A stretch of DNA of 64,000 nucleotides, taken from the IMG/VR virus record IMGVR_UViG_3300042869_000764; one strand, written 5' to 3'. Shown one piece after another: positions 1,433 through 36,614 of this stretch. The notes below the pieces were generated by a model, which worked only from the letters and a program-made list of their open reading frames with translations, did not search any database and was not told the DNA's origin. The position numbers and the translations under genes were made by a program. Every line of letters starts with the position of its first letter. The first letter of the stretch is position 1. This stretch comes from an uncultured virus (IMG/VR IMGVR_UViG_3300042869_000764). Taxonomy: Duplodnaviria > Heunggongvirae > Uroviricota > Caudoviricetes.

Positions 1433-2269
1433 ATGGATTACTACGCTACCCTAGGACTAAAACGAAACGCCAGTGATGCCGAAATAAAAAAGGCATACCG
1501 AAGCATGGCCATGAAATATCACCCAGATCGAGGCGGTGATGAAAAGAAGTTCAAAGAAATATCACAGGCTTACGAATTTCTTAGCGACCCCCAGAAAAAA
1601 CAAATCATAGACCTTGGCGGTGATCCTAATGCACAGCCGGGCATGGGTAGAGGTCAAAATCCGTTTGAGTTTCATTTCGACACTGGTAATATGCATGACA
1701 TTTTCGGTAACTTTGGCTTTGGCGGATTTGGTCGCCAGCCTCAACGCAGAAATAGATCCCTAAACATCAATGTAGAAATTACCTTAGAAGATGTGCTTAA
1801 CGGCAAAGACTTTACCGCTGAAGTTTCAATCCCTGGTAAGAATAAGATGATCAACATTCAGATTCCTCCGGGCATAGAGCATGGACAACAAATTAGATAC
1901 GAAGGCATGGGTGATGATTCAATACCCAGTCTCAAACCAGGAGATTTATTGGTTAATGTCATAGTGCGTGAACACCCCATATACCGACGAGAAGGCACAT
2001 CGTTGATCGTAGAACGAGAAGTAAGTGTATGGGATGCATTGCTGGGAGCTAGTATAGAAATACAAACACTAGATCGTAAAACATTATCAATGAACTTGCC
2101 ACCCGGTACACAACCGGATACAGTAATGAGTTGCAGAGGTGAAGGTTTGCCCAATATGCGCACAAGGCAGCGAGGTAACTTATTGATAAAAATTAAAGTA
2201 TCAATCCCAAAAATTCTACAACCCGAGCAAATCGACCTAATACAACAGATCAAACAAGGAAATATGTAA
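1433..2269 (+). CDS. dnaJ: DnaJ/CbpA-type co-chaperone lacking the zinc finger
   Basis: J domain with HPD, G/F-rich linker, C-terminal substrate-binding domain, no CxxCxGxG repeats. Confidence 0.92.
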   Translation: MDYYATLGLKRNASDAEIKKAYRSMAMKYHPDRGGDEKKFKEISQAYEFLSDPQKKQIIDLGGDPNAQPGMGRGQNPFEFHFDTGNMHDIFGNFGFGGFGRQPQRRNRSLNINVEITLEDVLNGKDFTAEVSIPGKNKMINIQIPPGIEHGQQIRYEGMGDDSIPSLKPGDLLVNVIVREHPIYRREGTSLIVEREVSVWDALLGASIEIQTLDRKTLSMNLPPGTQPDTVMSCRGEGLPNMRTRQRGNLLIKIKVSIPKILQPEQIDLIQQIKQGNM

Positions 2270-4626
2270 TGATTGAACCCAGTAAGAGCCTACAAGAAAT
2301 TTTTGAAAAATCTATAGAGATGGCCAAGACTTTGAGTCACGAGTACATAACCATTGAACATATTATCTATGGCATTATGGATGATGAGGATTCTTATAAA
2401 CTATTAGAAAGTTTTGGTGCTGATGCTAAATTTGTTAAAACAAATATAGAACACTACTTAAAAAACAATCTCAATGATATTAAAACTACCAATGCCAACG
2501 CAAAACCTAAAAAGACCAACAGCGTAGAACGTGTGTTGAATCGTTGCTTTACACAGGTGTTGTTTAGCGGTAGACAGCGCATGGAGATAGCAGATATCAT
2601 TATCAGTGTGCTGTCAGAGAAAAACAGTTTCGGTTACTACTTTCTTACCAAGGCCGGGGTGACTAAAGAAAAGTTTGTAAAGTATTTCCAAGAAAATGTG
2701 CAGGTTACCGAAGACGCCGAAGTTGAAACAAGAATAGTGAACTCAAATCAAATAGATCGAATATTGAATCAGTTTTGTACCAATCTCAGTCTCAAGGCCA
2801 AACAGCGAAAACTTGATCCTGTAATAGGCCGTGATGACGAAATAGAAAAAATACAATTGGTATTGGCACGTCGAAACAAGGCCAACGTGTTAATGGTAGG
2901 TGATCCCGGAGTGGGTAAAACTGCTATTGCTGAGGGCATTGCTCGTAAGATTCACGAAGGCAAGGTTCCTAAATTTATCAAGGACCATCAAGTCTATACT
3001 TTGGACATCAGTGCTCTCCTAGCAGGATCAAAGTATCGTGGTGATTTCGAAGAACGAGTTAAAGCGGTGTTGGCTGCACTAGAGAAAAAAGGCAAGATCA
3101 TCTTGTTCATCGACGAAGCACACATGATGAACGGTGCGGGTGCTGCAAATGGCAGTTCAAACGACATGGCCAATATGTTGAAACCCATACTTACCAAAGG
3201 TGTTCTCAAGCTGATAGCATCTACCACATGGGAAGAATATCGCAAGCACTTCGAAGGCGATCGTGCGCTGATGCGTCGATTCCAACGTGTGACCGTTGAA
3301 GAGCCTACACCAGAAATGGCTGTGAAGATCCTTAAAGGTCTAAAGAAATACTACGAGCAACATCACAATGTAAAAATATCCGATGCAGCCATCGAACAAG
3401 CAGTTAAGCTCAGTGTCAAATATATGAGTGATAAAAAACTGCCTGACAAGGCTATTGATATTATTGACTGTGCCTGTGCTAGATATAAGCTCAAAGATGA
3501 TGAGGGCATGGAAGGTGTTACACAGATTGTAGACATCGAACAGGTCACCTACGAACTCAGTAAGATGATTAACATGCCATTAGAAACCGTGGCGCAAAAA
3601 GAAAGCAAAAATCTTTCAGAGTTAGACACTCAGATGAAGGGTGTGGTCTACGGACAAGATAATGCTGTAGATACATTGTTAGATAAAATCTTTGTGAGTC
3701 AGGCTGGCATGAAGGCACCTAACAAGCCTATTGGGTCATTCCTATTCTTGGGACCCACAGGCTGTGGCAAAACCGAAACTGCTAAACAATTATCAGATAA
3801 AATGGGTATGCAGTTAATCCGATTTGACATGGGTGAGTATCAGGAAAAGCATTCAGTAGCAAGATTAATTGGTGCTCCTCCGGGTTATGTTGGTTACGAA
3901 GATAATGCTGGTATGTTGATCACCAAACTACAAGAAACACCCAACGCTATCTTACTATTAGACGAAGTTGAAAAAGCTCATCCGGATGTTATGAATATTC
4001 TTCTAGCGTTCATGGACAATGGTTTTATCACCGGATCCAATGGCAAAGTAGCAGACGGTCGTAATACTATTTTGATTATGACGTCAAATCTCGGAGCCGC
4101 TGACAACGAACTCAACACCATCGGATTTGGCGAACTAGAACGTGATGGCGAAGATGACAGAGCCATTAAGAAACATTTCAGCCCAGAATTCCGCAATAGA
4201 CTAGATGCTGTAATCAAGTTCTCTAAACTCAGTGGCGATACTGTGATCCAGATCGTCAAGAAGTTTGTGGCTGATCTCAACAGTCAATTAAAAGACAAAG
4301 GCATTGAGATCGTGGTTAACGCCAAGGCCACACGTTGGCTAGCAGATCGAGGCTACGACAAGAAGATGGGTGCTAGACCATTGGCACGAATCATCGACAA
4401 TGAAATCAAGAGCCCACTAAGTCGCAGAGTGCTGTTCGGTGATCTAGTAAATGGTGGAAGAGTTACCGTGGATATCATCGATGACAAATTGGATTTCACA
4501 GTGGTTGAGATACCAAAACCGTTGACCAAGGAAGAAAGAAAAGCTCTTAGGGCGCAACGAATTGCTGAAGCAGCAAATACACAAGAACAAGATGCTACAA
4601 CTGAAAACCAAATCGACCAGTCGTAA
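2269..4626 (+). CDS. clpA: ClpA-type AAA+ unfoldase
   Basis: Clp N domain, Walker A GDPGVGKT and GPTGCGKT, GSKYRGDFEER, GAPPGYVG, IGF ClpP-docking loop, no ClpB middle domain. Confidence 0.92.
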   Translation: MIEPSKSLQEIFEKSIEMAKTLSHEYITIEHIIYGIMDDEDSYKLLESFGADAKFVKTNIEHYLKNNLNDIKTTNANAKPKKTNSVERVLNRCFTQVLFSGRQRMEIADIIISVLSEKNSFGYYFLTKAGVTKEKFVKYFQENVQVTEDAEVETRIVNSNQIDRILNQFCTNLSLKAKQRKLDPVIGRDDEIEKIQLVLARRNKANVLMVGDPGVGKTAIAEGIARKIHEGKVPKFIKDHQVYTLDISALLAGSKYRGDFEERVKAVLAALEKKGKIILFIDEAHMMNGAGAANGSSNDMANMLKPILTKGVLKLIASTTWEEYRKHFEGDRALMRRFQRVTVEEPTPEMAVKILKGLKKYYEQHHNVKISDAAIEQAVKLSVKYMSDKKLPDKAIDIIDCACARYKLKDDEGMEGVTQIVDIEQVTYELSKMINMPLETVAQKESKNLSELDTQMKGVVYGQDNAVDTLLDKIFVSQAGMKAPNKPIGSFLFLGPTGCGKTETAKQLSDKMGMQLIRFDMGEYQEKHSVARLIGAPPGYVGYEDNAGMLITKLQETPNAILLLDEVEKAHPDVMNILLAFMDNGFITGSNGKVADGRNTILIMTSNLGAADNELNTIGFGELERDGEDDRAIKKHFSPEFRNRLDAVIKFSKLSGDTVIQIVKKFVADLNSQLKDKGIEIVVNAKATRWLADRGYDKKMGARPLARIIDNEIKSPLSRRVLFGDLVNGGRVTVDIIDDKLDFTVVEIPKPLTKEERKALRAQRIAEAANTQEQDATTENQIDQS

Positions 4627-10089: not shown

Positions 10090-10115
10090 CATAATACACT
10101 TTTAGGAATGTGAAC

Positions 10116-10973
10116 ATGGACTTCAAATCGTTAATCAGCAAAATAGAAAGTATCGACGGCAAAATCGATACTCCAAAAGCACCAGAGCTGCCAAAATCTG
10201 TGCAATTAAATGAAGACGCACAACTGCGTGTTCTAAGTGGCCGCACTACCTACGTTGCTGAAGCTAAGAAAAAAGCTGAAGAAGACGTTAAAGAAGCGGA
10301 CGACATGAAAGTAGGCGATAAGAAAAACATTGCTACTGGCACTGTTGAAAAAACAAAAACAGGCATTGTTCACAAGAGCAGCAAGGCCTATGGTGGCAGT
10401 GAAGAAAAAGAAGCTGATGACGAAGACAAGCCAAAGAAAAAAGCCAAAAAAGAAAGTGTAGAACCAGAATTTAAAAGCAAATTCATGAAAATGGTAGAAG
10501 CCAAGAAAGATGAAGCTGCTGATAAGAAAAAGAAAATGGCCAAGAAAGAAAAAATGGCAGAAGGATCTAAGCCAGATTTCCTAGACCTCGACAAAGACGG
10601 CGACAAGAAAGAGCCAATGAAGAAAGCTGCCGGTGAAAAGGGCGGCGACAAGCCAGCTAGCAAGAAAGGTATGAGCGACAAGCAGGCCAAATACTTTGGT
10701 AAGAAAAATGAATCAGTAACAACTTCTAAGAAAGTAGTTGCTGAATCAGTAGAAACAAAATTATCTTTCAAACAAATGGTTCAACTGGTTCAAGAAAGTG
10801 GCGGCCAGCAACAAATTGATCCTGTAGACAAAGCTCTGTTTACATGGGCAGAGCGTGTAGCTCGTAACAAACTAGGCGAAGGCATGAAAGCAGACTTATA
10901 CGCAGGGTTGGTCTATGAACGCAACGGTGGCGTATTTGAAATGTATGATGTACTAAGCGAAGCACAAAAGTAA
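10116..10973 (+). CDS. Lys/Glu-rich putative prohead core/internal protein
   Basis: Many hydrophobic-x-E sites (LNE, VAE, VKE, MVE, MAE, VQE, LSE); DLDKDGD EF-hand-like loop. Confidence 0.6.
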   Translation: MDFKSLISKIESIDGKIDTPKAPELPKSVQLNEDAQLRVLSGRTTYVAEAKKKAEEDVKEADDMKVGDKKNIATGTVEKTKTGIVHKSSKAYGGSEEKEADDEDKPKKKAKKESVEPEFKSKFMKMVEAKKDEAADKKKKMAKKEKMAEGSKPDFLDLDKDGDKKEPMKKAAGEKGGDKPASKKGMSDKQAKYFGKKNESVTTSKKVVAESVETKLSFKQMVQLVQESGGQQQIDPVDKALFTWAERVARNKLGEGMKADLYAGLVYERNGGVFEMYDVLSEAQK

Positions 10974-11677: not shown

Positions 11678-14347
11678 ATGAGTTTCGTGGACGCATACTA
11701 CGATCGCGACGATGACATGATACGTGTTGTTGAGCGTGACGACAAAGGGCAGAGGCATTTCAAAGACTATCCTGCCAGACATATATTCTATTACAACGAC
11801 CCCAAAGGCAAGTTCCAATCCATTAAGCGTGAACCTCTTAGCCGTGTAAGTTCAAAGAATGTCAAAGAACATCGCAAAGAACTTGCCATACATTCAAACA
11901 AAAAACTTCACGAAAGCGATATTAATCCCATATATCGTTGTTTAGAAGACAATTATCTCAATCAAGATGCACCTAAGCTAAATGTAGCGTTTTTCGATAT
12001 TGAGGTAGACTTTGATCCAGAACGTGGCTATGCATCACCAGATGATGCGTTCATGCCAATTACTGCGATTGCTGTCTACCTACAATGGATGGAGACCATG
12101 GTGTGTCTAGCCATACCTCCCAAAACACTCAGCATGGCAGAAGCCACCAAGCAGGTTGAAGAATTTCCCAATACCATGCTGTTTGACAACGAAGCAGACA
12201 TGCTAAACACATTCTTGGATCTCATACAAGATGCTGATGTGCTGAGTGGTTGGAACTCGGAAGGCTTTGATATTCCATATACTGTTAATCGTGTTACCAA
12301 GGTTCTCAGTAAAGAAGATACCAAACGTTTTTGTCTATGGAATTGTTTGCCTAAGAAACGAGAATATGAAAAGTTCGGTAAAACTGCCACTACATATGAC
12401 TTCATTGGCCGTGTGCATATAGACAGTCTTGAACTTTATCGCAAGTATACCTATGAAGAACGTCACACCTATCGATTAGATGCTATTGCCGAATATGAAC
12501 TAGGTCAGAGAAAGACTCAGTATGAAGGCACATTGGATCAATTATACAACAACGATTTTAAAACATTCGTTGAATACAATATCAACGATTGTAAACTGTT
12601 AGATGATCTAGATAAGAAACTGAAATTTATTGACTTAGCCAATACAATTGCACACGAAAACACAGTGCTGTTAGCAACTACTATGGGTGCAGTGGCTGTG
12701 ACTGAACAAGCTATCATCAACGAAGCTCATCGCAGAGGTATGATAGTTCCTAATCGCAAAAAAATGGAAGAGCACGGAGACACTCAAGCTGCTGGTGCCT
12801 ACGTTGCATATCCCAAGAAAGGTATACATGAGTGGATCGGCTCGCTAGATATTAACTCACTGTATCCTAGTGCTATTCGGGCTTTGAATATGGGTCCTGA
12901 AACCATCGTAGGTCAGTTGAGACAGGATGGGACCAAGGATTTTATTGCAGCAGAAATGTCAAAAGGAAAATCATTTGCGTCCGCTTGGGAAGGCATATTT
13001 GGTAGTCTTGAATATTCCGCTGTGATGAATCGAGAAGTGGGTCGTGAAGTCACTGTCGATTGGGAAGGTGGCGGCTCGGATACGCTAAGTGCGGCTCAGG
13101 CCTATGATCTTATATTTGACAGCAATCAACCTTGGATGATCTCAGCCAACGGCACTATATTCACATATGAAACTGAGGGTGTTATATCCGGACTGCTAGC
13201 ACGTTGGTATAAAGAACGTAAAGAAATGCAGGCCAAACTGCGAGAATGTATCCAGGCCGGCAACAAGATTGAAGAAGAATACTGGGACAAGCGACAGTTG
13301 GTCAAGAAGATTCTACTAAACAGTCTGTATGGTGCAATTTTAAATCCAGGCTGTAGATTCTTTGATAACAGAATTGGACAGTCCACAACTCTCACCGGAA
13401 GACAAATTGCCAAACACATGGCATCAAAAGTAAACGAAATTATCACTGGAGAGTATGATCACATCGGTCGAGCAGTAATCTACGGTGACACAGACTCTTG
13501 TTATTTTTCAGCGTATACTACCTTGAAAAAAGACATTGAGAAGGGACTGATTCCCTGGAACAGAGAATCAGTGGTCGAACTTTACGATACCATAGGAGAT
13601 ACGGTCAATGGCACATTTGTCAAATTCATGCAGGACGCATTTCATGTCCCTCGAACCAGAGCCGAGGTCATCAAAGCAGGTCGCGAAATTGTTGCAAGCA
13701 AAGGACTGTTCATCACCAAAAAGCGATACGCAGTTCTCTACTACGACAAAGAAGGCAAACGAGCAGACACAGAAGGCAAACCAGGAAAAATTAAAGCGAT
13801 GGGGCTTGATCTCAAGCGTTCAGATACCCCGGTTGTTATACAAGACTTCTTGAGTGAGGTGCTGACTAAGACACTAACTGGTGTGACCAAAGAAGAGATC
13901 CTGCAATATATCACTGATTTTCGCACAGAATTTAAAACTCGACCGGGTTGGGAAAAGGGCTCGCCTAAGCGAGCCAACAATATCACAGAATACGCTGCCA
14001 AAGAAAAAAAAGCAGGCAAGACTAACATGCCCGGGCATGTTAGAGCTTCATTGAATTGGAACACTCTCCGGCGTATGATGGATGACAAATACTCCATGCA
14101 GATTGTAGATGGCATGAAAGTAATTGTATGCAAGATCAAAGACAATCCTATGGGGCATACTTCCGTGGCCTATCCTGTGGATGAACTGAGATTGCCGCAG
14201 TGGTTCAAGGATCTTCCTTTCAACGATGCAGAAATGGAAACCACTGTGATAGATGAGAAGTTAGGAAACCTTATTGGTGTTTTGGAATGGGACATCAGTT
14301 CAACAAGGTCGGATAATACATTTAACAAACTGTTTGATTTTGAGTGA
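11678..14347 (+). CDS. Family B DNA polymerase (T4 gp43-like)
   Basis: Exo motifs FFDIE, GWNSEGFD, YNIND; pol motifs DINSLYPS, KILLNSLYG, YGDTDS. Confidence 0.95.
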   Translation: MSFVDAYYDRDDDMIRVVERDDKGQRHFKDYPARHIFYYNDPKGKFQSIKREPLSRVSSKNVKEHRKELAIHSNKKLHESDINPIYRCLEDNYLNQDAPKLNVAFFDIEVDFDPERGYASPDDAFMPITAIAVYLQWMETMVCLAIPPKTLSMAEATKQVEEFPNTMLFDNEADMLNTFLDLIQDADVLSGWNSEGFDIPYTVNRVTKVLSKEDTKRFCLWNCLPKKREYEKFGKTATTYDFIGRVHIDSLELYRKYTYEERHTYRLDAIAEYELGQRKTQYEGTLDQLYNNDFKTFVEYNINDCKLLDDLDKKLKFIDLANTIAHENTVLLATTMGAVAVTEQAIINEAHRRGMIVPNRKKMEEHGDTQAAGAYVAYPKKGIHEWIGSLDINSLYPSAIRALNMGPETIVGQLRQDGTKDFIAAEMSKGKSFASAWEGIFGSLEYSAVMNREVGREVTVDWEGGGSDTLSAAQAYDLIFDSNQPWMISANGTIFTYETEGVISGLLARWYKERKEMQAKLRECIQAGNKIEEEYWDKRQLVKKILLNSLYGAILNPGCRFFDNRIGQSTTLTGRQIAKHMASKVNEIITGEYDHIGRAVIYGDTDSCYFSAYTTLKKDIEKGLIPWNRESVVELYDTIGDTVNGTFVKFMQDAFHVPRTRAEVIKAGREIVASKGLFITKKRYAVLYYDKEGKRADTEGKPGKIKAMGLDLKRSDTPVVIQDFLSEVLTKTLTGVTKEEILQYITDFRTEFKTRPGWEKGSPKRANNITEYAAKEKKAGKTNMPGHVRASLNWNTLRRMMDDKYSMQIVDGMKVIVCKIKDNPMGHTSVAYPVDELRLPQWFKDLPFNDAEMETTVIDEKLGNLIGVLEWDISSTRSDNTFNKLFDFE

Positions 14348-14355
14348 TTTCTAGG

Positions 14356-14384
14356 TTGATTTTTTCTCAAGATCTAAATATAAT
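14356..14384 (+). promoter_or_regulatory. Sigma70-like promoter (overlapping TAAATA)
   Basis: TTGATT-17 bp-TATAAT. Confidence 0.6.
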
Positions 14385-14407
14385 CTTAATATACAGGAGA
14401 ATTCTTA

Positions 14408-15145
14408 ATGAAAGATATTTTACAAGACATCGTTAGCCACACACAGAACCTCGGCTTCTTGACCACAGTTAAAGTCACAGGCACAGACAAAGGCACAACT
14501 ATTAACTCAATGGCAGATGACCGTTCAGTGATCATGGAAGCAGAAACTGCTAATCCGTATCCAGATATGATTGGTGTGTTTGGCATGCCGCAACTGAACA
14601 AGTTGAAATATCTGTTGGAAGGTGCAGAATACAAAGAAGGTGCAAAGATCAGTATCACCACAGCAGAACGCAATGGCGAAACTTTGCCAGTAGGTCTACA
14701 CTTTGAAAACAAAGACGGCGACTTCAAGAACGACTATCGCTTCATGAATCAAGAAATCATCAATGAAAAGATGAAGACTGTGAAGTTTCGTGGTGTTAAG
14801 TGGGATGTTGAAATCGAACCATCAGTGACTTCTGTGATTCGTTTTAACTTTCAAGCAGGTGCTAACTCAGAGCATCCCACATTCCTTGCTAAAACTGAAG
14901 GCGGTAATCTTAAATTTACATTCGGTGATGCATCAACACACGGTGGTGAGTTTGTGTTTGCACAGAATGTTGCAGGCAAATTAGATCGCGGTTGGACTTG
15001 GCCAGTTGCTCCGATCTTGAGCATACTTAAGATTTCAGATACCAACACTGCTAAGATGTCGTTGAGCAATGAAGGTGCTATTCAGATCACTCTAGATAGC
15101 GGACTAGCAACTTACAAATATATTATCCCAGCACAGGCTGCTTAA
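14408..15145 (+). CDS. Probable DNA sliding clamp (gp45/PCNA-like)
   Basis: 245 aa, two-domain alpha/beta pattern, directly after the polymerase; no diagnostic motif. Confidence 0.55.
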   Translation: MKDILQDIVSHTQNLGFLTTVKVTGTDKGTTINSMADDRSVIMEAETANPYPDMIGVFGMPQLNKLKYLLEGAEYKEGAKISITTAERNGETLPVGLHFENKDGDFKNDYRFMNQEIINEKMKTVKFRGVKWDVEIEPSVTSVIRFNFQAGANSEHPTFLAKTEGGNLKFTFGDASTHGGEFVFAQNVAGKLDRGWTWPVAPILSILKISDTNTAKMSLSNEGAIQITLDSGLATYKYIIPAQAA

Positions 15146-16756
15146 ATGAAACCACCAGTTAATCTAACACCATTACAAAAGGACTATGCAGTATATCTGC
15201 CGGCAATTAGTTCTTTTTATTCTACCTATGTTGCAAAACAGCGACTAGAAGAGTTTGTACCAAAGGATCGTATTCCTGCAGGCTTTGATCAAGGAATTGA
15301 AGGAATGAACTTTCTTAATCCAGATCAAGGATACTTTACCTATAAGTATGCTCTGTATTCAGCAGGACACGCTCAACTTGATGTTATCAAAGCACAGGAT
15401 CAAGAATCCATGATACAACAGCGTGATCGCGGACAAACAATGATTTTAGGCGACTCCGGTGGTTATCAGATCGGTAAAGGTGTTCTCAAGTTTGATTGGT
15501 TGAACTTTGAAGGTGCAGAAGCTACCAAGACACGTCAAAAGATTCTTGAATGGCTAGAAGCAACTGCTGATTGGTCAATGATGTTAGACGTGCCTACATG
15601 GGCCTGTGATCACATCCACAGTCCGAAGACTGGATTGAAAACATTCGAAGACTGTTTAGAAAAGACTCGTTATAATAACAAGTATTTTCTAGATAATCGG
15701 TTGGGAGCTACCAAGTGGCTTAATGTATTGCAAGGCGGTGATTGGGATACTGCAGAAAAGTGGTATCGTGGCGTTGTAGAGTTCAGCGATCCCAAAGGAC
15801 CATTTGCAGGAAAAGAAGCAGAAGGTTGGGCATTTGGTGGTGCTAATATGTGTAAGATGGATATCACACTCAAACGTCTAATGACCATGCGTGACGAAGG
15901 AATGCTAGACGGCAAGAACTGGATTCACTTCTTGGGCACAGCACAATTAGATTGGTCATGCTATCTAACTCAAATTCAACGTCAGATCCGTAAACACATC
16001 AATCCAGAACTCACAATCAGTTTTGACTGTGCAAGCCCGTTCATTGCTACTGCTCACGGACTTGTTTACACAAATGCACAACATACCAACAAGCGTTGGT
16101 CAGTGATCATGGACAAGGCTCCTGATAATAAAGCACTTTCAGGACGATTTGATATTCCGTTTCCTTTTGAAAGTGAATTCGGAAGCCGTTTGACCATGGG
16201 CGATATTGCATATTACAATTACGGTGTTCGTAAGACAGATGCCGAACTCGGAGATGTTAAGTTTAATCACTTGAATCCAGAACACTATCACGAAGTTCCG
16301 AGACTTAACAAGCTAGGTAAGATTCCAAACAAGACTAGTTGGGATAGTTTCAGTTACGCACTAATGATGGGGCATAATGTCGAATGTCATATCAAAGCGG
16401 TGCAACGTGCTCAACAGTTAATGGATATTGAATGTGCTAGGTTTACTCCAGACTGGCGTATGAAGAGCATTGAAGGCAAGAAAGAAATTGAATTCAGCGA
16501 TTGGGTTCCAAATAAAATTCTTTACTTCGGTACATTTGTTGAAGAACTATTCAATACCAAAACCAAAGCAGAAGCGTTTGATATGATTGAAACTGGTGCG
16601 CAGTTCTTGAAATCACTAGAAGGTTCACGTTTACAAGGCGGTCCTGCTGCTAACACATTTGGTAACTTATTTGATTTCGATGATGGTAAGAAAGCAGGCG
16701 AAATTGATTTTGCCAATCCAGACGATGACGAATTAAACAGTTTGGTTGTAGAATAA
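15146..16756 (+). CDS. dpdA: TGT-fold guanine transglycosylase, DpdA-like (DNA 7-deazaguanine insertion)
   Basis: GDSGGYQ, LDVP, VLQG, GWAFGG, HFLG, SFD motifs; context with folE/queE; no CxCxxC zinc site of tRNA TGTs. Confidence 0.75.
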   Translation: MKPPVNLTPLQKDYAVYLPAISSFYSTYVAKQRLEEFVPKDRIPAGFDQGIEGMNFLNPDQGYFTYKYALYSAGHAQLDVIKAQDQESMIQQRDRGQTMILGDSGGYQIGKGVLKFDWLNFEGAEATKTRQKILEWLEATADWSMMLDVPTWACDHIHSPKTGLKTFEDCLEKTRYNNKYFLDNRLGATKWLNVLQGGDWDTAEKWYRGVVEFSDPKGPFAGKEAEGWAFGGANMCKMDITLKRLMTMRDEGMLDGKNWIHFLGTAQLDWSCYLTQIQRQIRKHINPELTISFDCASPFIATAHGLVYTNAQHTNKRWSVIMDKAPDNKALSGRFDIPFPFESEFGSRLTMGDIAYYNYGVRKTDAELGDVKFNHLNPEHYHEVPRLNKLGKIPNKTSWDSFSYALMMGHNVECHIKAVQRAQQLMDIECARFTPDWRMKSIEGKKEIEFSDWVPNKILYFGTFVEELFNTKTKAEAFDMIETGAQFLKSLEGSRLQGGPAANTFGNLFDFDDGKKAGEIDFANPDDDELNSLVVE

Positions 16757-17666: not shown

Positions 17667-18037
17667 GTGGTGGCTACGCAGTAGCATCGGTGACAAAGGT
17701 TCCAAGAATCCGCGGTGCTAATAAAATTAATCGTGCAAGAAGTGTAGTAGAAAAGAAACCTATGAAATTAACATTTAAACAAAAAATTCGCAACTGGCTA
17801 ATGAACGACGAAGAAGATTACAGTAATCAGCTTATTTCAGTTGACAGCGAAGGCCCAAACATTGCATCACAAGGTTTTCGACTAAATGTCTATGGCGCTA
17901 GTGGCGGTACTATCATTGAAACTACCAAGTATGACCGAAAGAACGATGAGAATCGACACAGTCTACATGTGGTCACTGAAGATAAAGATCTCGGTGAAGA
18001 ATTATCTAAAATTATAACCATGGAACAACTAAGATGA
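17663..18037 (+). CDS. Hypothetical protein
   Basis: Coupled ORF. Confidence 0.7.
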   Translation: MSGGYAVASVTKVPRIRGANKINRARSVVEKKPMKLTFKQKIRNWLMNDEEDYSNQLISVDSEGPNIASQGFRLNVYGASGGTIIETTKYDRKNDENRHSLHVVTEDKDLGEELSKIITMEQLR

Positions 18038-18423
18038 ACATTCGACAAGACGTTAGACCTAACAAAATGATTTGGGTTACCTTTCAGAAAGAAGGTATGC
18101 ACAAATATCCAGCTGCACTTACAGACCCAGCACTTGCTACAGGTGATGAATATGATGTAAGTTTTCTAGGTTATCCGCATCGTCACATCTTTCACTTCAA
18201 AGTTTGGATTGGCGTTACACACGATGATCGTGATATTGAGTTTATTCAGTTTAAACGATGGTTGCTAAATCTCTACAAAGATGCTACACTAAGTTTAGAT
18301 TATAAGAGTTGTGAAATGATGTCAGGCGACTTATATGACGTCATTAGCAAAAAGTATCCAGGTCGCGAGATTTGGATTGAGGTCTCCGAAGACGGAGAAA
18401 ATGGTTCATTCATCAAATACTAA
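18034..18423 (+). CDS. T-fold QueD paralogue (DpdL-like)
   Basis: HKY...LGYPHRHIF...IEF...SCE...VSEDGENG; LxxxHRHxF instead of QueD CxxxHGH. Confidence 0.65.
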   Translation: MNIRQDVRPNKMIWVTFQKEGMHKYPAALTDPALATGDEYDVSFLGYPHRHIFHFKVWIGVTHDDRDIEFIQFKRWLLNLYKDATLSLDYKSCEMMSGDLYDVISKKYPGREIWIEVSEDGENGSFIKY

Positions 18424-18662: not shown

Positions 18663-19727
18663 ATGGCACGAGTTTTTCTCATTGATCTTGAAGCAGTAGA
18701 GACTAGATATACGGGTCAGTGGAAAACTCACGTGCCGGCAATCCTTAAAAAAGCAGGGCACCATGTCAACATTATATCAGGTCCTACGGACATTCCTAGT
18801 GCTACCACTCCTGGAGCATTTCTCAACTTTGGCGGCACGAATATCTACAAGGCTAGTCAAATTGAACAAATGGGTAGGTTATTTTGTAACGGATCCATTC
18901 ATCCCGGCGATCACTTTATCTTTACTGATGCTTGGCATCCTGGTATCATAAATTTAAAGTATATGAGTGAGCTACTGGGAATTCCAGTAACTACACATGG
19001 TCTTTGGCATGCTGGCTCATATGATCCGCAAGACTTCTTAGGACGCCTTGTAGGAAATAAACCCTGGGTTAGAAATGCTGAACAAAGTTTCTATCATGCG
19101 TTTGATCACAACTACTTTGCTACACAGTTTCATATTGACATGTTTTGTGAAAATTTGTTAGGATTTACTCCAGCAAAAAAACTATATGATACTAAGATTG
19201 TGCGCACAGGTTGGCCTATGGAGTATATGGAGGACACGTTAACAATGTATAAAAACATGACTAAACGTGATCTTATCTTGTTCCCGCATCGTATCGCTCC
19301 AGAGAAACAGGTTGAAATCTTTCGTGACTTGAAAGAACACTTACCGCAATATGAATTTGTCGTCTGTCAAGATCAACAACTAACAAAAAACGAATATCAT
19401 AATTTGCTAGGCGAAGCCAAATTGGTGTTTAGTGCAAACCTGCAAGAAACCCTAGGCATCAGTTGGTATGAAGGTGCTATTGTAGGTGCCATTCCTATGG
19501 TTCCTGATAGACTCAGCTATAGTGAAATGGCTTTAGATACATTTAAGTATCCTAGCAAATGGACTGAGAGCTACGATGCATATACTGTATATCGTCCAGA
19601 TATTTGTAGAGAAATAATCCAGCATATGGATAATTACGAAACTCGACTGCCTAGCCTAAATAAACAGGTAGCTATACTACAAGAAAACTTTTTTAGTTGT
19701 AATAAACTATTAGAGATGTTAAAATAA
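18663..19727 (+). CDS. GT-B (GT4-like) glycosyltransferase
   Basis: FPHRIAPEKQ and ETLGISWYEG...P donor-binding motifs. Confidence 0.8.
   Translation: MARVFLIDLEAVETRYTGQWKTHVPAILKKAGHHVNIISGPTDIPSATTPGAFLNFGGTNIYKASQIEQMGRLFCNGSIHPGDHFIFTDAWHPGIINLKYMSELLGIPVTTHGLWHAGSYDPQDFLGRLVGNKPWVRNAEQSFYHAFDHNYFATQFHIDMFCENLLGFTPAKKLYDTKIVRTGWPMEYMEDTLTMYKNMTKRDLILFPHRIAPEKQVEIFRDLKEHLPQYEFVVCQDQQLTKNEYHNLLGEAKLVFSANLQETLGISWYEGAIVGAIPMVPDRLSYSEMALDTFKYPSKWTESYDAYTVYRPDICREIIQHMDNYETRLPSLNKQVAILQENFFSCNKLLEMLK
19697..19725 (+). promoter_or_regulatory. Extended -10 sigma70 promoter for folE
   Basis: TTGTAA-17 bp-TAAAAT with TGn. Confidence 0.55.
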
Positions 19728-19766: not shown

Positions 19767-20513
19767 TTGACAAATAAAACAGAAACAGGCCTGGACGCAA
19801 TGGCAGGCGATGGCGGATATAAAGAAGCATATCTAGGTGATCACATTCGTTTTAAGATGAAACGTGAAGGCAAGCGTTTCTGGGCCGGTGACAACATCAG
19901 TGATTATCTGCATGACGGCGACTTAGAAAAATTAATTGACGAAGCAACTCCTGCATTTGAACAAGTGCTAGACAGTTTGCTTATTGATCGTGAAAATGAT
20001 CCCAACAGTAAAGGCACAGCACGTAGACTTGCTAAAATGTATTTTAATGAAATCATGTCAGGTAGATACGACCCTGCTCCAGATGCAACAGCGTTTCCGA
20101 ATGATAGTGAGGATAGATATGAAGGAATGTTGGTTGTTAGAAGTGAATTGCGTAGTATGTGTAGTCATCATCACCAGCCTGTATCTGGGGTGGCTTATAT
20201 TGGTATCATTGCTGCCAACAAACTTATTGGCCTTAGCAAGTATACTCGTATTGCTCAGTGGTGCGCTAGGCGTGGCACTCTCCAGGAAGAACTCTGCAAT
20301 GATATTGCAAGAGAAATAAGTCGAGCTACAGATAGTGAAAACATCGGAGTATACATACAAGCCACTCACGGTTGCTGTGAGAATCGTGGCATTATGGCGC
20401 ATTCGAGTCTAACACAGACCACTGTACTCAAAGGTGCATTTAAAGATGATCCAGGAACAAAGAAAGAATTCTTTGACAATATTAAAATGCAGCAAGAATT
20501 TTCGCCACGATGA
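19767..20513 (+). CDS. folE: GTP cyclohydrolase I
   Basis: TARRLAKMY, SMCSHH, GLSK, QEEL, HGC...RG; TTG start with SD GGAG. Confidence 0.93.
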   Translation: MTNKTETGLDAMAGDGGYKEAYLGDHIRFKMKREGKRFWAGDNISDYLHDGDLEKLIDEATPAFEQVLDSLLIDRENDPNSKGTARRLAKMYFNEIMSGRYDPAPDATAFPNDSEDRYEGMLVVRSELRSMCSHHHQPVSGVAYIGIIAANKLIGLSKYTRIAQWCARRGTLQEELCNDIAREISRATDSENIGVYIQATHGCCENRGIMAHSSLTQTTVLKGAFKDDPGTKKEFFDNIKMQQEFSPR

Positions 20514-24236: not shown

Positions 24237-25091
24237 ATGAGCAAAATAAAAATAGCAGAACTTTTTTACAGCATACAAGGCGAAGGCCGATATATGGGTG
24301 TCCCTAGTGTGTTCTTACGCACGTTTGGATGTAACTTTACTTGTGACGGCTTTGGTATGTCACGTGGTGAACAAAGCAAGGAGCGTGATTTTATTGCGGC
24401 CGATATTAAGAAGTTTTTTAAATATCAAGACTTACCATTAGTAAGCACAGGTTGTGATAGCTATGCCAGCTGGGATCCTAGATTCAAAGATCTTTCGCCC
24501 ATGCTAACAACTGATGCGATTGCAGAACGCATCATGGAAATATTACCTTACAAGCGTTGGGAAGATGAACACTTGGTTATCACTGGCGGTGAACCGTTGT
24601 TAGGTTGGCAACGTGCTTATCCGGATCTGTTGAATCATCTGAGTATGACAGGTCTTAAAGAAATTACTTTTGAAACCAACGGTACTCAAAAGCTAACTCC
24701 GGAGTTTAAAAAATATCTACAAGAATGGGCACAGAATCCTCCTTTTGCCAGTAGAGAAGTTACATTCTCGGTCAGTGCCAAACTCAGTTGTTCAGGAGAA
24801 CAGCCTAGTGAAGCTATACGCCCAGACATAGTCTGTGAATATCAAGAAGCTGGTCATGTATATCTCAAATTAGTAGTGGCCACTGAAGGTGATGCAGAAG
24901 AAGCTCTAGAAGCTGTGGATATCTATCGTGCAGAAGGTTTCACTGGTAATGTTTATCTCATGCCTGTGGGCGGGGTTGAAAGTGTATACACACTAAATAA
25001 CCGCAGAGTAGCAGAACTGGCAATGAAACATGGACTGAGATATTCAGACAGATTGCAGGTGCCATTGTTTAAAAATGAATGGGGAACATGA
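24237..25091 (+). CDS. queE: 7-carboxy-7-deazaguanine synthase (radical SAM)
   Basis: ELFYSIQGEG, FLRTFGCNFTC...CDS, TGGEP, ETNG, LMP, RLQV. Confidence 0.88.
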   Translation: MSKIKIAELFYSIQGEGRYMGVPSVFLRTFGCNFTCDGFGMSRGEQSKERDFIAADIKKFFKYQDLPLVSTGCDSYASWDPRFKDLSPMLTTDAIAERIMEILPYKRWEDEHLVITGGEPLLGWQRAYPDLLNHLSMTGLKEITFETNGTQKLTPEFKKYLQEWAQNPPFASREVTFSVSAKLSCSGEQPSEAIRPDIVCEYQEAGHVYLKLVVATEGDAEEALEAVDIYRAEGFTGNVYLMPVGGVESVYTLNNRRVAELAMKHGLRYSDRLQVPLFKNEWGT

Positions 25092-30130: not shown

Positions 30131-30973
30131 TTAGTTGATAATAACATGCTCTTTGTAAAGCTGTTCGGCGAAAGATTTATGAGCATCCTCATTTAAATGT
30201 CCATGTGGTAATGTAGTTTTTTCCGTTTTAAAATCGTATAAACAACAATCTGTAGTTGCAAATAGTTGAGAATTATGTAATTGATTTATTATTTTGTTAA
30301 AAAATAAAGCATTCTCAAGTGACGCTACCCGATATGTGCCGTAAGCGTGTGTGCTGGGCCAAAGACATAATTCTTCACGAATTTGTTCCATAGGGATCAC
30401 AAACAATCTGCCATTTATTTTCTGTTTTATTGATTCGAATACTTTTAAATCTCTATAATAATTCCACAAGAGTCTATCGTCTGTGAAATATTTTGTTATA
30501 TGTTCTGATAGTTCGACTTTGTACGATTCGATATTTGAAAGTAAAAACGGCACAGGTTCTGGATAGGTACTAGAGAAAAACATAGATCGCTGGGTTCCGG
30601 TTGTTCCGACCAAAATTAAATCGTCATCGGTAATTTCTCCCGAATTTAATTTTTGTTCTATCTGCCAACACATGAGTTCATTACTATTACCAGGCTTTGC
30701 ATAATTTATAAAGTTCACACCCAAGTAAGAAGCTAGATGTGCCGGCCAAGAATGGTTGGGTTCTTGTTTTCGAATTTCTAGCTGTAGCTTCATCTGATCT
30801 GGATCTTTTTTAAGTTTTTCCCACCACTGATACGCATCTAATTTATTTTTTAAATCTACAAAATAGGGATTTAATTGATAATCTAGTATTTCGGTCCCGG
30901 CTGTAAAACTGCAACCGAATGCTACGATTCTTTTTACATTAAATGTATTTTCTTTGATAGTAAGTTTTACCAT
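30131..30973 (-). CDS. SGNH/GDSL-like hydrolase or acyltransferase
   Basis: AFGCSFT, NYAKPGNSN, C-terminal HGHL. Confidence 0.65.
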   Translation of the reverse strand: MVKLTIKENTFNVKRIVAFGCSFTAGTEILDYQLNPYFVDLKNKLDAYQWWEKLKKDPDQMKLQLEIRKQEPNHSWPAHLASYLGVNFINYAKPGNSNELMCWQIEQKLNSGEITDDDLILVGTTGTQRSMFFSSTYPEPVPFLLSNIESYKVELSEHITKYFTDDRLLWNYYRDLKVFESIKQKINGRLFVIPMEQIREELCLWPSTHAYGTYRVASLENALFFNKIINQLHNSQLFATTDCCLYDFKTEKTTLPHGHLNEDAHKSFAEQLYKEHVIIN

Positions 30974-32166
30974 GTGTTTACCTTGAATTGTTTTGCGTAT
31001 TCTATAAAATGAGGTTTGATTTTGAATAAATTTTGATTACGTATCATATCATAGTTTTTTTGCATTTTAAAAAATTCGACCACCCTTTTAGAGTCCACAT
31101 TTTTAGATTTATCTATTGCTTCCTTAATCATATTTAATAATTCATCTGCTCGATGCAACGATGTATTTCTATACTTTTGTAATTTGCTGTGTGACTCTTC
31201 CAAAACATGCAAGGGTGTTATGTCAAGCTCATTGAATTGAACTACCGGAATAAAATAAAAGCTGAGTTTATTATCTGATAGTTCATGCATGCTATCAATA
31301 AGTTGGTCTAAGTTATCAACATTTAAATTTTGCACAGTGGTGGCTATTCCAGGTAGTATATTCTTATTCTGTTTAGAATAATCAATTACAAGGTTTATAT
31401 TTTTATGTAATTTAGCCCAATTTCCAGGCCACCTTATATACTCATAAGTATCACCATGGCCGTCTATACTGATGCTTAAATCTATATTTCTAAATTTTTC
31501 CCATACTTCTAATTTACGTTCAGCATCAATTTGTAGGTTTGTATTGTAATGCAAGATTAAATTTTTTGATCTACCGTTCGCAATGAGCAGTTCAACAATC
31601 TCATCGTGAAATTCAGATACCAGTGGTTCTCCTCCCAACATGTATATTTCTGTTAAGTTAACAGATTTGTTGATTGTGTCAAGTATTTTGTCTTTGGTAG
31701 ATCTATCAAATTCGATGATTTCCTTGTGACCCTGTGATTTATTAATGATATTCCATTGTTTGGCAACTAAAGAACTGCTATAAGGACTGCACATTCGACA
31801 GGCGAGATTACATTTATTTCCTAGTGTAATATCAAGATACTGTATATTTTCAAAACCTATGTGACTTTTAAATTCAATCGTCTTGTTATTTTTTATTCCA
31901 TAAGATTGATTTTCATTTGCTACGTGTCTAAAACTAGGATTCCCGATAGCCTCCATGTTCCAGCATCGATCACAGTTACTAGGCTTTTGTCCATTTAAAA
32001 AATCCTGTCTTAGTTCTACAATTTTTTTATTATTAATGAATTCTTCAGGAGTTAAATCCTTGGCATATAATTTGAATCCATTGGTTCCACTGCTACAACA
32101 AGCTCTAAATTGCCCGACTGCATCTATGCTTATGCTATTAAAAGGTAAGACACATAAATTATTCAT
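30967..32166 (-). CDS. Radical SAM protein with N-terminal twitch/SPASM-like Cys cluster
   Basis: CNLACRMC, GGEP, YNTN, SIDG, YIR; N-terminal C...CC...CDRC; SD before ATG 32166. Confidence 0.88.
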   Translation of the reverse strand: MNNLCVLPFNSISIDAVGQFRACCSSGTNGFKLYAKDLTPEEFINNKKIVELRQDFLNGQKPSNCDRCWNMEAIGNPSFRHVANENQSYGIKNNKTIEFKSHIGFENIQYLDITLGNKCNLACRMCSPYSSSLVAKQWNIINKSQGHKEIIEFDRSTKDKILDTINKSVNLTEIYMLGGEPLVSEFHDEIVELLIANGRSKNLILHYNTNLQIDAERKLEVWEKFRNIDLSISIDGHGDTYEYIRWPGNWAKLHKNINLVIDYSKQNKNILPGIATTVQNLNVDNLDQLIDSMHELSDNKLSFYFIPVVQFNELDITPLHVLEESHSKLQKYRNTSLHRADELLNMIKEAIDKSKNVDSKRVVEFFKMQKNYDMIRNQNLFKIKPHFIEYAKQFKVNTW

Positions 32167-33385
32167 TGTTTTCCTTGATAATGTATGAATCTTTTTTGTT
32201 TCCAAGTTCTCCAAAATCGAGACCATTAAATTCTACACCACAGCATTGTCCGCATTTCGCTGGACGCATTGAAGTATTACCATTTTCGTTATCCCACGTG
32301 TCGGGAATCCATTTCTGGAAAATATCTAATTGCAGTATGTCGTAGATATCGTTGATATGCATATTAAGTCTATGTAGTCCACCTTGAGCATTAATCATAC
32401 TGATATAATTTTCGTCTCGGTCTTTAACTTTGGTATCTATCATAGGCTCGGAACCTAAAAAACAACAAGGAGCAACATGTCCTCCTGCACTTACAAATAT
32501 TTCATTGTGCGGTTGATGCATTCTAGCATCTTTGACTGCGCGGCACGCTATGTTAAGTGAATCTAGATCAATAGTTTCCCATTTTCCATTTACAAATCTC
32601 ATGTCCCCATTCTTGATACCTACCATATTTTTAAAATCATTCAGCGTGATACTTTGATATTTGCTCTGCTTGAAGTATTGCGAATCTTCAAAGTTGTGTT
32701 TGAATTTATCTTCATTGGGTTGTTTAAGATCATACAAGTGTATGCCTTTGGAATAAACAGGATATGACCCAACACCGTCTTTGTATTTTGCCCAACGGGT
32801 AGTTCTTTTAACGTTAAAGTTCTTAAAGCCCATAGAACGTGCTAGTTCTCTAGCTTCCTCAACTTGATGTTCATTGTGCTCAAATACAATAAAATCCCAA
32901 TGAGCAACACCGCCAGCATCAATAAATGCTTTGGCGTTTTCCATGATTTTTTTCCAGTTGGTATTTCGACGATAAAGATGATTTGTGTCTTCAAGTCCAT
33001 CTAGACTAAACGTACAGTAGTTACCTAGATTTTGATCTTCACGCATCACAGCCCCTAACCGACTCCACCATGCTGGATTTCTAAGGCTACCGTTAGTGTT
33101 ACAGGCAAGCCCCATGCCTGGATTGATTTCTCTGCAGTATTCATATATGTCTACAAATTCTCTACAGGCGCAAGGATCACCAAAGTTACCACAAGCAAGT
33201 ATCTTTTGCAATTGCGATAAAAATTTTACAGACCATGCTTTTTTAAAACTTTCTAAAGTCCATTCTTTATTTTCTAATGTGCTTATCTCAAAACCTTTTG
33301 AATCATATCTTGGACACATAGAACATCCACTGTTACATTTGTCTGTTGGTTCCCAATGAACCTGTGTTACTGCATCATTCCACAT
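32159..33385 (-). CDS. Radical SAM protein with C-terminal SPASM/twitch domain
   Basis: CNSGCSMC, GNFGDP, NTNG, SLDG; C-terminal C...PCC...CGQCC. Confidence 0.88.
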   Translation of the reverse strand: MWNDAVTQVHWEPTDKCNSGCSMCPRYDSKGFEISTLENKEWTLESFKKAWSVKFLSQLQKILACGNFGDPCACREFVDIYEYCREINPGMGLACNTNGSLRNPAWWSRLGAVMREDQNLGNYCTFSLDGLEDTNHLYRRNTNWKKIMENAKAFIDAGGVAHWDFIVFEHNEHQVEEARELARSMGFKNFNVKRTTRWAKYKDGVGSYPVYSKGIHLYDLKQPNEDKFKHNFEDSQYFKQSKYQSITLNDFKNMVGIKNGDMRFVNGKWETIDLDSLNIACRAVKDARMHQPHNEIFVSAGGHVAPCCFLGSEPMIDTKVKDRDENYISMINAQGGLHRLNMHINDIYDILQLDIFQKWIPDTWDNENGNTSMRPAKCGQCCGVEFNGLDFGELGNKKDSYIIKENNE

Positions 33386-33393
33386 ATTATATC

Positions 33394-35944: not shown

Positions 35945-36614
35945 TATGTAACCTGTTTTTTAAATTAATTTGACCTGCTAGTCTATGATGAAAAACATCA
36001 TCTACTATTTTAAATAGTTCGTCGTGCAATTTTTGGTTAGCCATATGATTAGGTCTCATATCTTTAGAGGCAAACTCAAGCAGTTTTTCTTCTGTGTTTA
36101 AATATTTTTTTGGTATTTCTATTCTAGAGAAATATATCAGAGCTGGCCTAACTTCGTTTTCAAATGTGTGCGAATAAACTAAGCTATCCTCGGATACAAA
36201 TTTAGTAGATACCCAATTGCTCGAATCACCGTATCCGGAAGGGAAAGCCCAGAAAAACAACATGCGGATCTTTCGTTCTTTAACAACCGCTTCGATCTTA
36301 TCCAAATACATATCAGACTGCATTTCAAGAAGACGTTGATTATAAAAGTGTTTATGATACAACTGGTGAATTTCTTGTGTCTTCTTAGAATCTTTCTGAT
36401 AATATCTTTGATTCTCAGACCAACAAAAAACAACTAAATCGTCAGGTGTTATACGGTCTAAGTCTTCCATGAATCTTAAAAATATATAATGATTGCTTGC
36501 ACCTGCAATTGATCGATTTATTAGTTGATGTTTTCCATGTAATTGATCAATCCACGAAGTGCATCTCACTTCACTAGACATGCTAAAACTATCACCGTAT
36601 ATGAAAATCGTCAT
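35934..36614 (-). CDS. SGNH/GDSL-like hydrolase or acyltransferase
   Basis: IYGDSFS, SIAGASN, PNH; ATGA coupling at 36614. Confidence 0.65.
   Translation of the reverse strand: MTIFIYGDSFSMSSEVRCTSWIDQLHGKHQLINRSIAGASNHYIFLRFMEDLDRITPDDLVVFCWSENQRYYQKDSKKTQEIHQLYHKHFYNQRLLEMQSDMYLDKIEAVVKERKIRMLFFWAFPSGYGDSSNWVSTKFVSEDSLVYSHTFENEVRPALIYFSRIEIPKKYLNTEEKLLEFASKDMRPNHMANQKLHDELFKIVDDVFHHRLAGQINLKNRLHNES

Follow-up and report, generated by a model that had tools for sequence, protein, structure and literature searches.

A Polymerase-Type Tail Peptide as a Probable Sliding-Clamp Tether on a DpdA-Like Transglycosylase of an Uncultured Jumbo Phage

Introduction

In PMC10516641, phage DNA is described as receiving its 7-deazaguanines after replication, through DpdA enzymes that act as free proteins, with levels of replacement that range from 0.1% to 100% for no known reason. 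According to the same paper DpdA3 replaces all G, and both DpdA3 and DpdA4 failed in E. coli (PMC10516641); the word “clamp” occurs 0 times in that paper. Here we describe a 64,000-nucleotide stretch of DNA from an uncultured virus (IMG/VR record IMGVR_UViG_3300042869_000764; hereafter the window), in which a 536-amino-acid (aa) protein with the predicted fold of a tRNA-guanine transglycosylase (TGT) carries in its C-terminal tail a peptide that resembles the C-terminus of the phage DNA polymerase, with a predicted sliding-clamp gene lying between the two genes. The window (G000:C1:118741-182740, minus strand, within one 281,658-bp viral contig) represents the module for replication and DNA modification in an uncultured jumbo phage of 281.7 kb that is related to Pseudomonas phage PA5oct. 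We propose that a clamp-docking peptide of the T4 type probably tethers this DpdA-like DNA transglycosylase to the replisome.

In the T4 record, the polymerase gp43 and gp55 have a hydrophobic-acidic C-terminal peptide in common. For gp43, gp55 and gp33 the tails are reported to be gp45-binding epitopes that are freely swappable between proteins and sit on variable, probably unstructured linkers, and the gp55 epitope is reported to remain functional when made internal by fusion (PMC2988020). This last property matters here because the peptide of the transglycosylase is not terminal in the clade of the window. The arrangement in the window is like that of the T4/RB69 gp45 clients in that the polymerase and a non-polymerase protein of one phage both bear a short hydrophobic-acidic peptide carried by a flexible linker, in that the linker varies while the peptide is kept, and in having the same type of clamp fold and clamp loader. 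It differs in that the client would be a base-exchanging DNA-modification enzyme and not a transcription factor, that the peptide reads F-x-x-L-F-D-F rather than L-D-F-L-F as in T4, that in the window clade it is followed by 24 residues with a second conserved element, and that docking is predicted only.

The notion of a DNA-modifying enzyme on a clamp has been raised before. An interaction between the T4 alpha-glucosyltransferase and gp45 was reportedly first claimed by Sommer et al. in 2004. That claim shares with our proposal the idea of a hypermodifying enzyme coupled to replication via the clamp; the T4 alpha- and beta-glucosyltransferases, unlike the enzyme described here, have no gp43-type tail. 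Among cellular enzymes, Dnmt1 is described as a DNA-modifying enzyme that bears a clamp-binding motif for PCNA and modifies newly replicated DNA (PMC9690074), although its reaction is methyl transfer to hemimethylated CpG in the service of epigenetic inheritance, whereas whole-base exchange would here protect a virus, and both the motif and the enzyme families are unrelated to those of the window. The T4 DNA ligase, likewise a non-polymerase phage DNA enzyme on the clamp, is reported to dock on gp45 by a “unique mode” (PMC6212786), which, by the title of that paper, is not that of a C-terminal polymerase-type tail. With bDpdA and DpdA1-4 (PMC10516641, PMC6884629) the window protein has in common the TGT-superfamily fold, neighbors of the FolE/QueD/QueE type as found in phages, and the expected exchange of guanine for a 7-deazaguanine in DNA, and it differs from them in having no match to the Pfam TGT or PADLOC DpdA models and no CxCxxC motif, and in its length of 536 aa with a helical C-terminal domain and tail. 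In the full-text literature, from which subscription journals are largely missing, we found no description of a clamp-docking tail on a DpdA-type enzyme. An earlier reading of the window made from the letters alone (hereafter the original prediction) had put the coupling forward as not known to be described; this stands for DpdA in the literature searched and does not stand for the general idea, which has precedents in Dnmt1/PCNA and in the contested alpha-glucosyltransferase/gp45 interaction of T4.

Results and Discussion

A Peptide Common to the Polymerase and the Transglycosylase

Three co-oriented genes form the core of the locus (positions are those of the window, plus strand unless stated otherwise): a family B DNA polymerase of the T4/RB69 gp43 type (889 aa; 11678..14347), a predicted sliding-clamp protomer of 245 aa and of the two-domain PCNA/gp45 type (14408..15145), and the DpdA-like transglycosylase (15146..16756), which by its predicted fold is a long-form TGT-type enzyme with a C-terminal tail. 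The TAA stop codon of the clamp gene (15143-15145) abuts the ATG of the transglycosylase gene at 15146. The original prediction had rested on two decapeptides, and both were confirmed: the polymerase ends in NTFNKLFDFE (14315..14344, with the TGA stop codon next), presumably a clamp-docking peptide, and the transglycosylase carries NTFGNLFDFD at residues 503-512 (16652..16681), for which its likeness to the polymerase tail suggests the same role. The latter lies in a disordered linker and tail (residues 496-526; 16631..16723), where the predicted local distance difference test (pLDDT) of the AlphaFold2 model falls below 50, and the earlier description of this region as a low-complexity tail was fair. 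Further on, a second tail element, IDFANPDDDELNSL (residues 520-533; 16703..16744), stands out by its conservation; it is acidic and partly helical, with a short helix predicted by AlphaFold2 at residues 528-535.

The two decapeptides are identical at seven of ten residues, and among 329 crude open reading frames (ORFs; 93,594 residues) of the genome no other ten-residue segment matches the polymerase tail at 7/10 or at 6/10, the next best being 17 segments at 5/10. When the proteome was shuffled 200 times, a match of at least 7/10 arose in three shuffles. The codons of the two peptides differ at synonymous sites (for example CTG and TTA for Leu), indicating that the likeness has been kept at the protein level, by selection on the peptide, and does not reflect a recent DNA duplication. 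Across the same 329 ORFs, the polymerase and the transglycosylase are the only two with the strict pattern in a C-terminal tail, and no further carriers of the peptide were found beyond an internal QAFGSLFEIQ in a 1154-aa ORF and an internal copy in a tail-fiber-like ORF; it is also absent from the exonuclease, the QueE and six other ORFs of the window that were checked. The 1154-aa ORF (G000:C1:111011-114472, +) lies outside the window beside a giant ORF of 4605 aa, and its QAFGSLFEIQ, 54 residues from the end, is the sole other F..LF near-copy near a C-terminus in the genome; since the product is probably structural, this match may be a chance one.

Conservation of the peptide was examined in 80 related viral loci, in which 75 polymerase tails and 77 transglycosylase tails were readable. 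Every readable polymerase tail (75/75) fits F..LF.F[DE] at its very end, 70 of the 77 transglycosylase tails fit F..[LFH][FY], and none of the 77 is without the peptide. The 77 tails comprise 46 distinct sequences, in which the length and the residues between the motifs vary and the two motifs are kept; all 77 contain the second element, in which L-x-x-L comes after an acidic run. Elements like the second, acidic one were also seen in the tails of PA5oct, Vibrio phage GR7B and several representatives of the distant set described next.

A more distant set was drawn from a HMMER scan that gave 870 family members (50%-cluster representatives, E ≤ 0.001), of which 150 were listed, 114 of them with a length of at least 400 aa. 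Among these 114 listed representatives, 18 have F..[LM]F within their last 45 residues, compared with 3 of 1033 body windows, an enrichment of about 50-fold. The shorter [LM]F is found in the last 45 residues of 54 (47%, versus 14.2% of body windows) and in the last 12 residues of 31 (versus 153 of 4028 body windows). Searches for the genomic context of four representatives, P0178, P0179, P0217 and P0154, among viral contigs, and for that of P0217 among genome contigs as well, found none.

The tail of the transglycosylase not only recurs across lineages, it also resembles the tail of its own polymerase in seven of the nine lineages in which both tails were readable, with one further lineage partial and one absent; this is a descriptive pairwise reading. 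The polymerase and transglycosylase peptides are, respectively, NTFNKLFDFE and NTFGNLFDFD in the window clade, ..DLFDF (10 of 10 tails) and ..NLFDF (LF in 8 of 9) in the clade of loci L084-L092, KAMKLFNY and KAKSLFEF in L094, NSMFSF and HNLFDF in L105, TFQQLFDFK and QFNNLFEMA in L112, HFDSLFGW and SFNSLFDV in PA5oct, and NNTDLFDW and NNNDLFGW in Vibrio phage 2.275.O. The peptide falls within the last two residues of the transglycosylase in five lineages other than that of the window (L084-L092, L094, L105, L112 and Vibrio phage 2.275.O). The order polymerase, clamp, transglycosylase is kept in all seven lineages with like tails and in L114. Additionally, a terminal QF..[LM]F.. peptide is kept in a clade made up of L106-L111 and L116; in L110 and L116 the readable 10 kb upstream contains neither a polymerase nor a clamp gene, and the remaining members of the clade lie on contigs too short to judge by. 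Taken together, the 80 close loci and the nine lineages bear out the expectation of the original prediction that the motif would be conserved in homologues of the transglycosylase, where it moreover tracks the tail of the cognate polymerase.

The Polymerase and the Sliding Clamp

The assignment of the polymerase is based on matches to the Pfam families DNA_pol_B (E 1.5e-34) and the exonuclease domain (E 4.1e-20), to phrog_262 (DNA polymerase, E 2.3e-197), and to PDB chains of the RB69 polymerase gp43, which align with its last 289 aa (E 9.8e-15) up to a point before the tail. In PA5oct (L001 1605-6831), L085 (754-5093) and L094 (2922-7151) the polymerase gene is divided between two ORFs, with the tail peptide on the C-terminal piece; the halves in PA5oct flank an annotated Hef-like homing endonuclease.

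The gene between polymerase and transglycosylase, taken in the original prediction for a probable sliding clamp, has a clamp fold in its model and adjoins the start of the transglycosylase gene. Its AlphaFold2 model (residues 1-245, from a 32-row alignment) has a pLDDT of 90.3 and a predicted template-modeling score (pTM) of 0.88, and the best Foldseek matches are all PCNA (E 2.4e-11, TM 0.62-0.70). An independent scan of 48,161 chains with VIA-align ranked PCNA at Z 18.5 (root-mean-square deviation (rmsd) 3.2, 221 residues aligned), T4 gp45 (6drt_A) at Z 16.6 (rmsd 3.2, 213 of 230 residues aligned) and bacterial beta clamps at about Z 16. The first 38 rows of that scan contain clamps and processivity factors only; split-PCNA fragments occupy rows 39 and 41 (Z 9.8 and 6.0) and a de novo design row 40 (Z 7.0), and from row 42 on Z is at most 4.0. 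The modeled structure is that of a full two-domain sliding-clamp protomer. At the level of sequence families, the protein has no Pfam match at E ≤ 0.01 and a single PHROG match, to phrog_12062 of “unknown function”; homologues are labeled PCNA or sliding clamp in some phage records. A homologue of the clamp loader (phrog_168, “clamp loader of DNA polymerase”, E 4.6e-76; G000:C1:187024-187935) is encoded in the same genome, about 4 kb beyond the start of the window and outside it.

With the L094 clamp as query, the search for homologues returned a single protein. In Sinorhizobium phage Phosso, a 241-aa “virion structural protein” encoded beside the transglycosylase was considered as a clamp and rejected; the real homologue adjoins the Phosso polymerase elsewhere in that genome.

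Predicted Complex of the Clamp and the Tail

The complex of three clamp copies with the 56-aa tail of the transglycosylase, both supplied with alignments, was predicted together with three controls. The interaction prediction score from aligned errors (ipSAE) was 0.57 (0.55, 0.58 and 0.57 in separate runs), a value rated as weak support. The score was 0.00 for each control, of which two used unrelated partners and one an unrelated protein instead of the clamp. The clamp copies were modeled with a pLDDT of 90-91 and the partner with a pLDDT of at least 42, with contacts agreeing between runs to at least 58%. In the calibration of this procedure, 116 of 157 solved complexes came up to the mark, as did 2 of 215 mismatched pairs; 18 of those solved complexes and both mismatches did so with scores of 0.60 or less. 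The complex prediction, of the kind suggested along with the original prediction, gave a score that stands apart from that of the controls and belongs to the weak band, and it brought no interface with it. Given the strong prior from the comparative data, we read it as mild additional support, and not as proof, of docking.

A TGT-Fold Enzyme in a 7-Deazaguanine Context

The 536-aa protein was modeled by AlphaFold2 from an 83-row alignment of diverse relatives, with a pLDDT of 88.7 and a pTM of 0.89, and the model shows a helical C-terminal domain ahead of the tail. All 50 Foldseek matches listed are tRNA-guanine transglycosylases (E from 2.3e-7, probability 1.00, TMt about 0.5). VIA-align gave Z 17.5-18.6 over some 300 residues to bacterial, archaeal and human TGT, with T. 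maritima TGT at Z 18.6 (rmsd 4.4, 301 aligned), archaeosine TGT at Z 18.0 and human TGT at Z 17.9. Four residues, D103, S104, G106 and D294, do not vary among the 83 diverse family members, at least 90% of which also keep G105 and Q108. By this conservation GDSGGYQ (residues 102-108; 15449..15469) is a candidate active-site loop, which may correspond to the catalytic Asp loop of TGT (Asp-Ser-Gly-Gly, with D103 as the putative general acid). The invariant D294 (16025..16027) is a candidate nucleophile.

FolE (GTP cyclohydrolase I) catalyzes the first step of 7-deazaguanine synthesis. Genes for FolE (19767..20513; Pfam GTP_cyclohydroI E 1e-38, phrog_2197 E 7.9e-44) and for a QueE-like radical SAM enzyme (24237..25091; phrog_2076, “QueE-like radical SAM domain”, E 6.6e-54) both lie near the transglycosylase gene within the window; for QueC there is a weak match (16.6 bits) elsewhere in this genome. 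The homologues of the transglycosylase in PA5oct and Vibrio phage 2.275.O adjoin annotated QueE, QueF, QueC and FolE. Because of its TGT fold and the FolE/QueE-type context, we file the 536-aa protein as a TGT-fold, DpdA-like enzyme that falls outside every named DpdA subfamily. The name “DpdA-like transglycosylase” used in the original prediction is therefore borne out by fold (Foldseek and VIA-align) and by gene context, and is not borne out by any TGT or DpdA sequence model.

The closest cultured relatives of the protein are found in PA5oct and its kin (43% identity), followed by Sinorhizobium phage Phosso and Vibrio phage 2.275.O (about 30%). In PA5oct the homologue of the transglycosylase is EST35_0316 and the clamp is EST35_0314. 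PA5oct DNA is reported to resist several restriction enzymes with G in their sites, and the report notes QueE and PTPS genes, with no transglycosylase named in its accessible text (PMC12191111). Iyer et al. (2021) credit PA5oct with a “deazaguanine synthesis/incorporation system”, and the PA5oct enzyme may have been recognised already by these authors (PMC7824862).

Membership of the DpdA3 family was considered and rejected. The probable DpdA3 of the phi19:2/phiST group has 259 aa, is only remotely like the window enzyme (hhalign probability 65%, E 6e-5, 84 columns) and has no such tail. A tblastn search with this probable DpdA3, aimed at phages with 100% modification, found no Campylobacter phage.

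A remote relative of 539 aa (E 8e-3), annotated as “TGT domain-containing protein”, is encoded by Vibrio phage GR7B (L095 3611-5227) and keeps the CxCxxC motif. Its tail has a ..TLFG.. peptide, then an acidic helix like that of the window tail, and then a long lysine-rich end. A search for the GR7B polymerase with the window polymerase as query gave 0 matches.

Three further observations concern the genes around the transglycosylase. A 129-aa protein (18034..18423, +) in the deazaguanine cluster matches phrog_17812 (unknown function, E 3.2e-30), has no Pfam match at E ≤ 0.01, and may be a QueD/PTPS or DpdL-type T-fold protein. A 354-aa gene (18663..19727, +) without a Pfam or PHROG family accompanies the transglycosylase gene. 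In PA5oct (L001 9617-10678) and Vibrio phage 2.275.O (L003 9726-10838), ORFs of about 355-370 aa that look homologous to it come directly after the transglycosylase.

Proposed Tethering to the Clamp and Alternative Explanations

We consider it likely that the enzyme is tethered to the replisome by a clamp-docking peptide of the type found in T4 gp43, gp55 and gp33. If the peptide docks on the clamp, the enzyme would occupy a free protomer of a clamp placed at primer ends by the phage clamp loader, and would move with the polymerase or just behind it. Guanine in the fresh duplex would then be swapped for a 7-deazaguanine supplied by the neighboring FolE/QueE pathway, and the second conserved acidic helix may bind a further part of the replisome. 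The benefit to the phage would be a fast and thorough modification of its nascent DNA. It is possible, as a pure inference which the data do not need, that tethering also gives self/non-self discrimination, because the clamp would be present only on DNA that the phage machinery itself has primed and loaded. A gain in the efficiency and timing of modification is no less likely, and the speed and completeness of protection before packaging offer a simpler benefit.

A number of observations weigh against this proposal. The complex score of 0.57 lies in a band described as “more often wrong than right unless likely beforehand”, and it came without an interface. Within the clade of the window, 24 mostly acidic residues come after the peptide, which is therefore internal. 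Seven of the 77 close transglycosylase tails carry a worn variant, and among the listed full-length representatives of the distant set 60 of 114 have no [LM]F in their last 45 residues, with a scarcity among short forms (16 of 59 at 400-480 aa, compared with 38 of 55 at 480 aa or more). L114 is a counter-example, in which the polymerase ends in TFADVFDF and the transglycosylase tail has no LF peptide, with gene order kept; the match in Phosso is partial (polymerase TTFNDLFTF, transglycosylase ..EGLF only), and the Phosso transglycosylase gene adjoins primase and helicase genes far from the polymerase. The identity of the enzyme is also affected: no match was found in Pfam (E ≤ 0.01), PHROGs, NCBIfam (E ≤ 1) or PADLOC (E ≤ 1), TGT and DpdA models included; phmmer and a family profile run against PDB sequences returned nothing relevant and no TGT; the CxCxxC zinc-binding cluster of canonical TGT does not occur in the 536-aa sequence; and that DNA is the substrate is deduced from context alone. 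Finally, the precedent closest in kind, the T4 alpha-glucosyltransferase-gp45 interaction, is contradicted by a 2025 preprint that reports no interaction in vitro or in vivo (10.64898/2025.12.06.692756).

The shared peptide could instead dock on some other common partner, such as the clamp loader, a gp32-like single-strand binding protein, the helicase, or a chaperone or protease. Conservation and co-variation show the same constraint on both tails without naming the partner, and the complex prediction is weak; the T4 tails may themselves use more than one site (PMC2988020), and a Lon-like protease (phrog_4871, E 4.1e-249) is encoded nearby. Nevertheless, we judge this explanation unlikely: in the homologous polymerase of T4/RB69, the one well-studied relative, the homologous position is reported to be the epitope that binds the clamp (PMC2988020), the genes of the two tail-bearing proteins flank the clamp gene, which translationally abuts that of the transglycosylase, and the controls with unrelated partners and an unrelated clamp substitute scored 0.00 against 0.57 for the clamp. 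That the two peptides are alike by chance, or as a side effect either of tails that are acidic and of low complexity or of local gene conversion involving neighboring genes, appears very improbable. The motif is short, a match as good as the observed one did appear in 3 of 200 shuffles, and acidic tails are common in replication proteins, but chance would hardly account for recurrence in seven of nine lineages in lineage-specific versions, for the persistence of the peptide within a tail of varying length and sequence, for the differing synonymous codons, or for the roughly 50-fold excess of F..[LM]F in tails over bodies.

A different objection is that the enzyme acts on tRNA, as a tRNA-guanine transglycosylase, or is another non-DNA enzyme of tRNA or nucleotide metabolism, and that the likeness of its tail is irrelevant to DNA modification. 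Each of the best structural matches is indeed a tRNA enzyme, no DpdA model matches, and sequence cannot reveal the substrate. Even so, the gene is embedded in the replisome operon in many lineages, and there would be little sense in a polymerase-type tail on an enzyme of tRNA. PA5oct virion DNA is reported to behave as G-modified (PMC12191111), and the phage DpdA subfamilies are described as homologues of TGT that are very distant and come to light only with profile methods (PMC10516641). We regard a role confined to tRNA or nucleotides as quite improbable. PF01702 (TGT) was itself touched by just 2 of 20 distant relatives of the enzyme, at E 0.007-0.011, below the cut-off.

Clamp tethering of the transglycosylase, which we prefer, would provide a concrete mechanism by which base exchange is coupled to the replication fork, in the form of a polymerase-type tail on a widespread, long-form DpdA-like family. 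If correct, a DNA-hypermodifying enzyme would join the “tool belt” of phage clamps, and supplying the clamp and its loader would be a suggested remedy for failed heterologous reconstitution. In addition, the window family is a candidate for the unnamed transglycosylase of the PA5oct-type therapeutic jumbo phages, the DNA of which is reported to be G-modified in its behavior (PMC12191111).

A stronger version, which we put forward tentatively and hold to be rather doubtful, is that the tether has two parts, with the polymerase-type peptide on the clamp and the acidic helix on another protein of the fork, so that the transglycosylase is a true subunit of the replisome. If this two-part tether were true, base exchange would be chemically post-synthetic and at the same time physically co-replicative and processive. 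This would account both for the replacement of much or all of the guanine in some phages and for the failure, reported for DpdA3 and DpdA4 (PMC10516641), of distant DpdA subfamilies that were expressed on their own in E. coli. It would also mean that the phage clamp, and not a sequence motif, selects the DNA to be modified.

Neighboring Genes and Additional Observations

Other genes of the window and of related loci are recorded here. The Lon-like gene is that of an ATP-dependent protease of 785 aa (2269..4623, +) upstream of the replication genes. Approximately 0.7 kb upstream of the polymerase, a 287-aa ORF (10110..10973, +) of low complexity and rich in Lys and Glu, with no family, has a hydrophobic-acidic C-terminus, ..GGVFEMYDVLSEAQK. 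Five neighboring genes on the opposite strand (30970..37765, -) each match PHROG families annotated as “radical SAM domain-containing protein”; for PA5oct, Iyer et al. (2021) mention “five momylating enzymes”. Lastly, downstream of the replication module in L105 (16393-19321) there are five tandem paralogous ORFs of about 155-282 aa with near-identical ends, ..NPILKKAWESG.REEFN.VKALIS.

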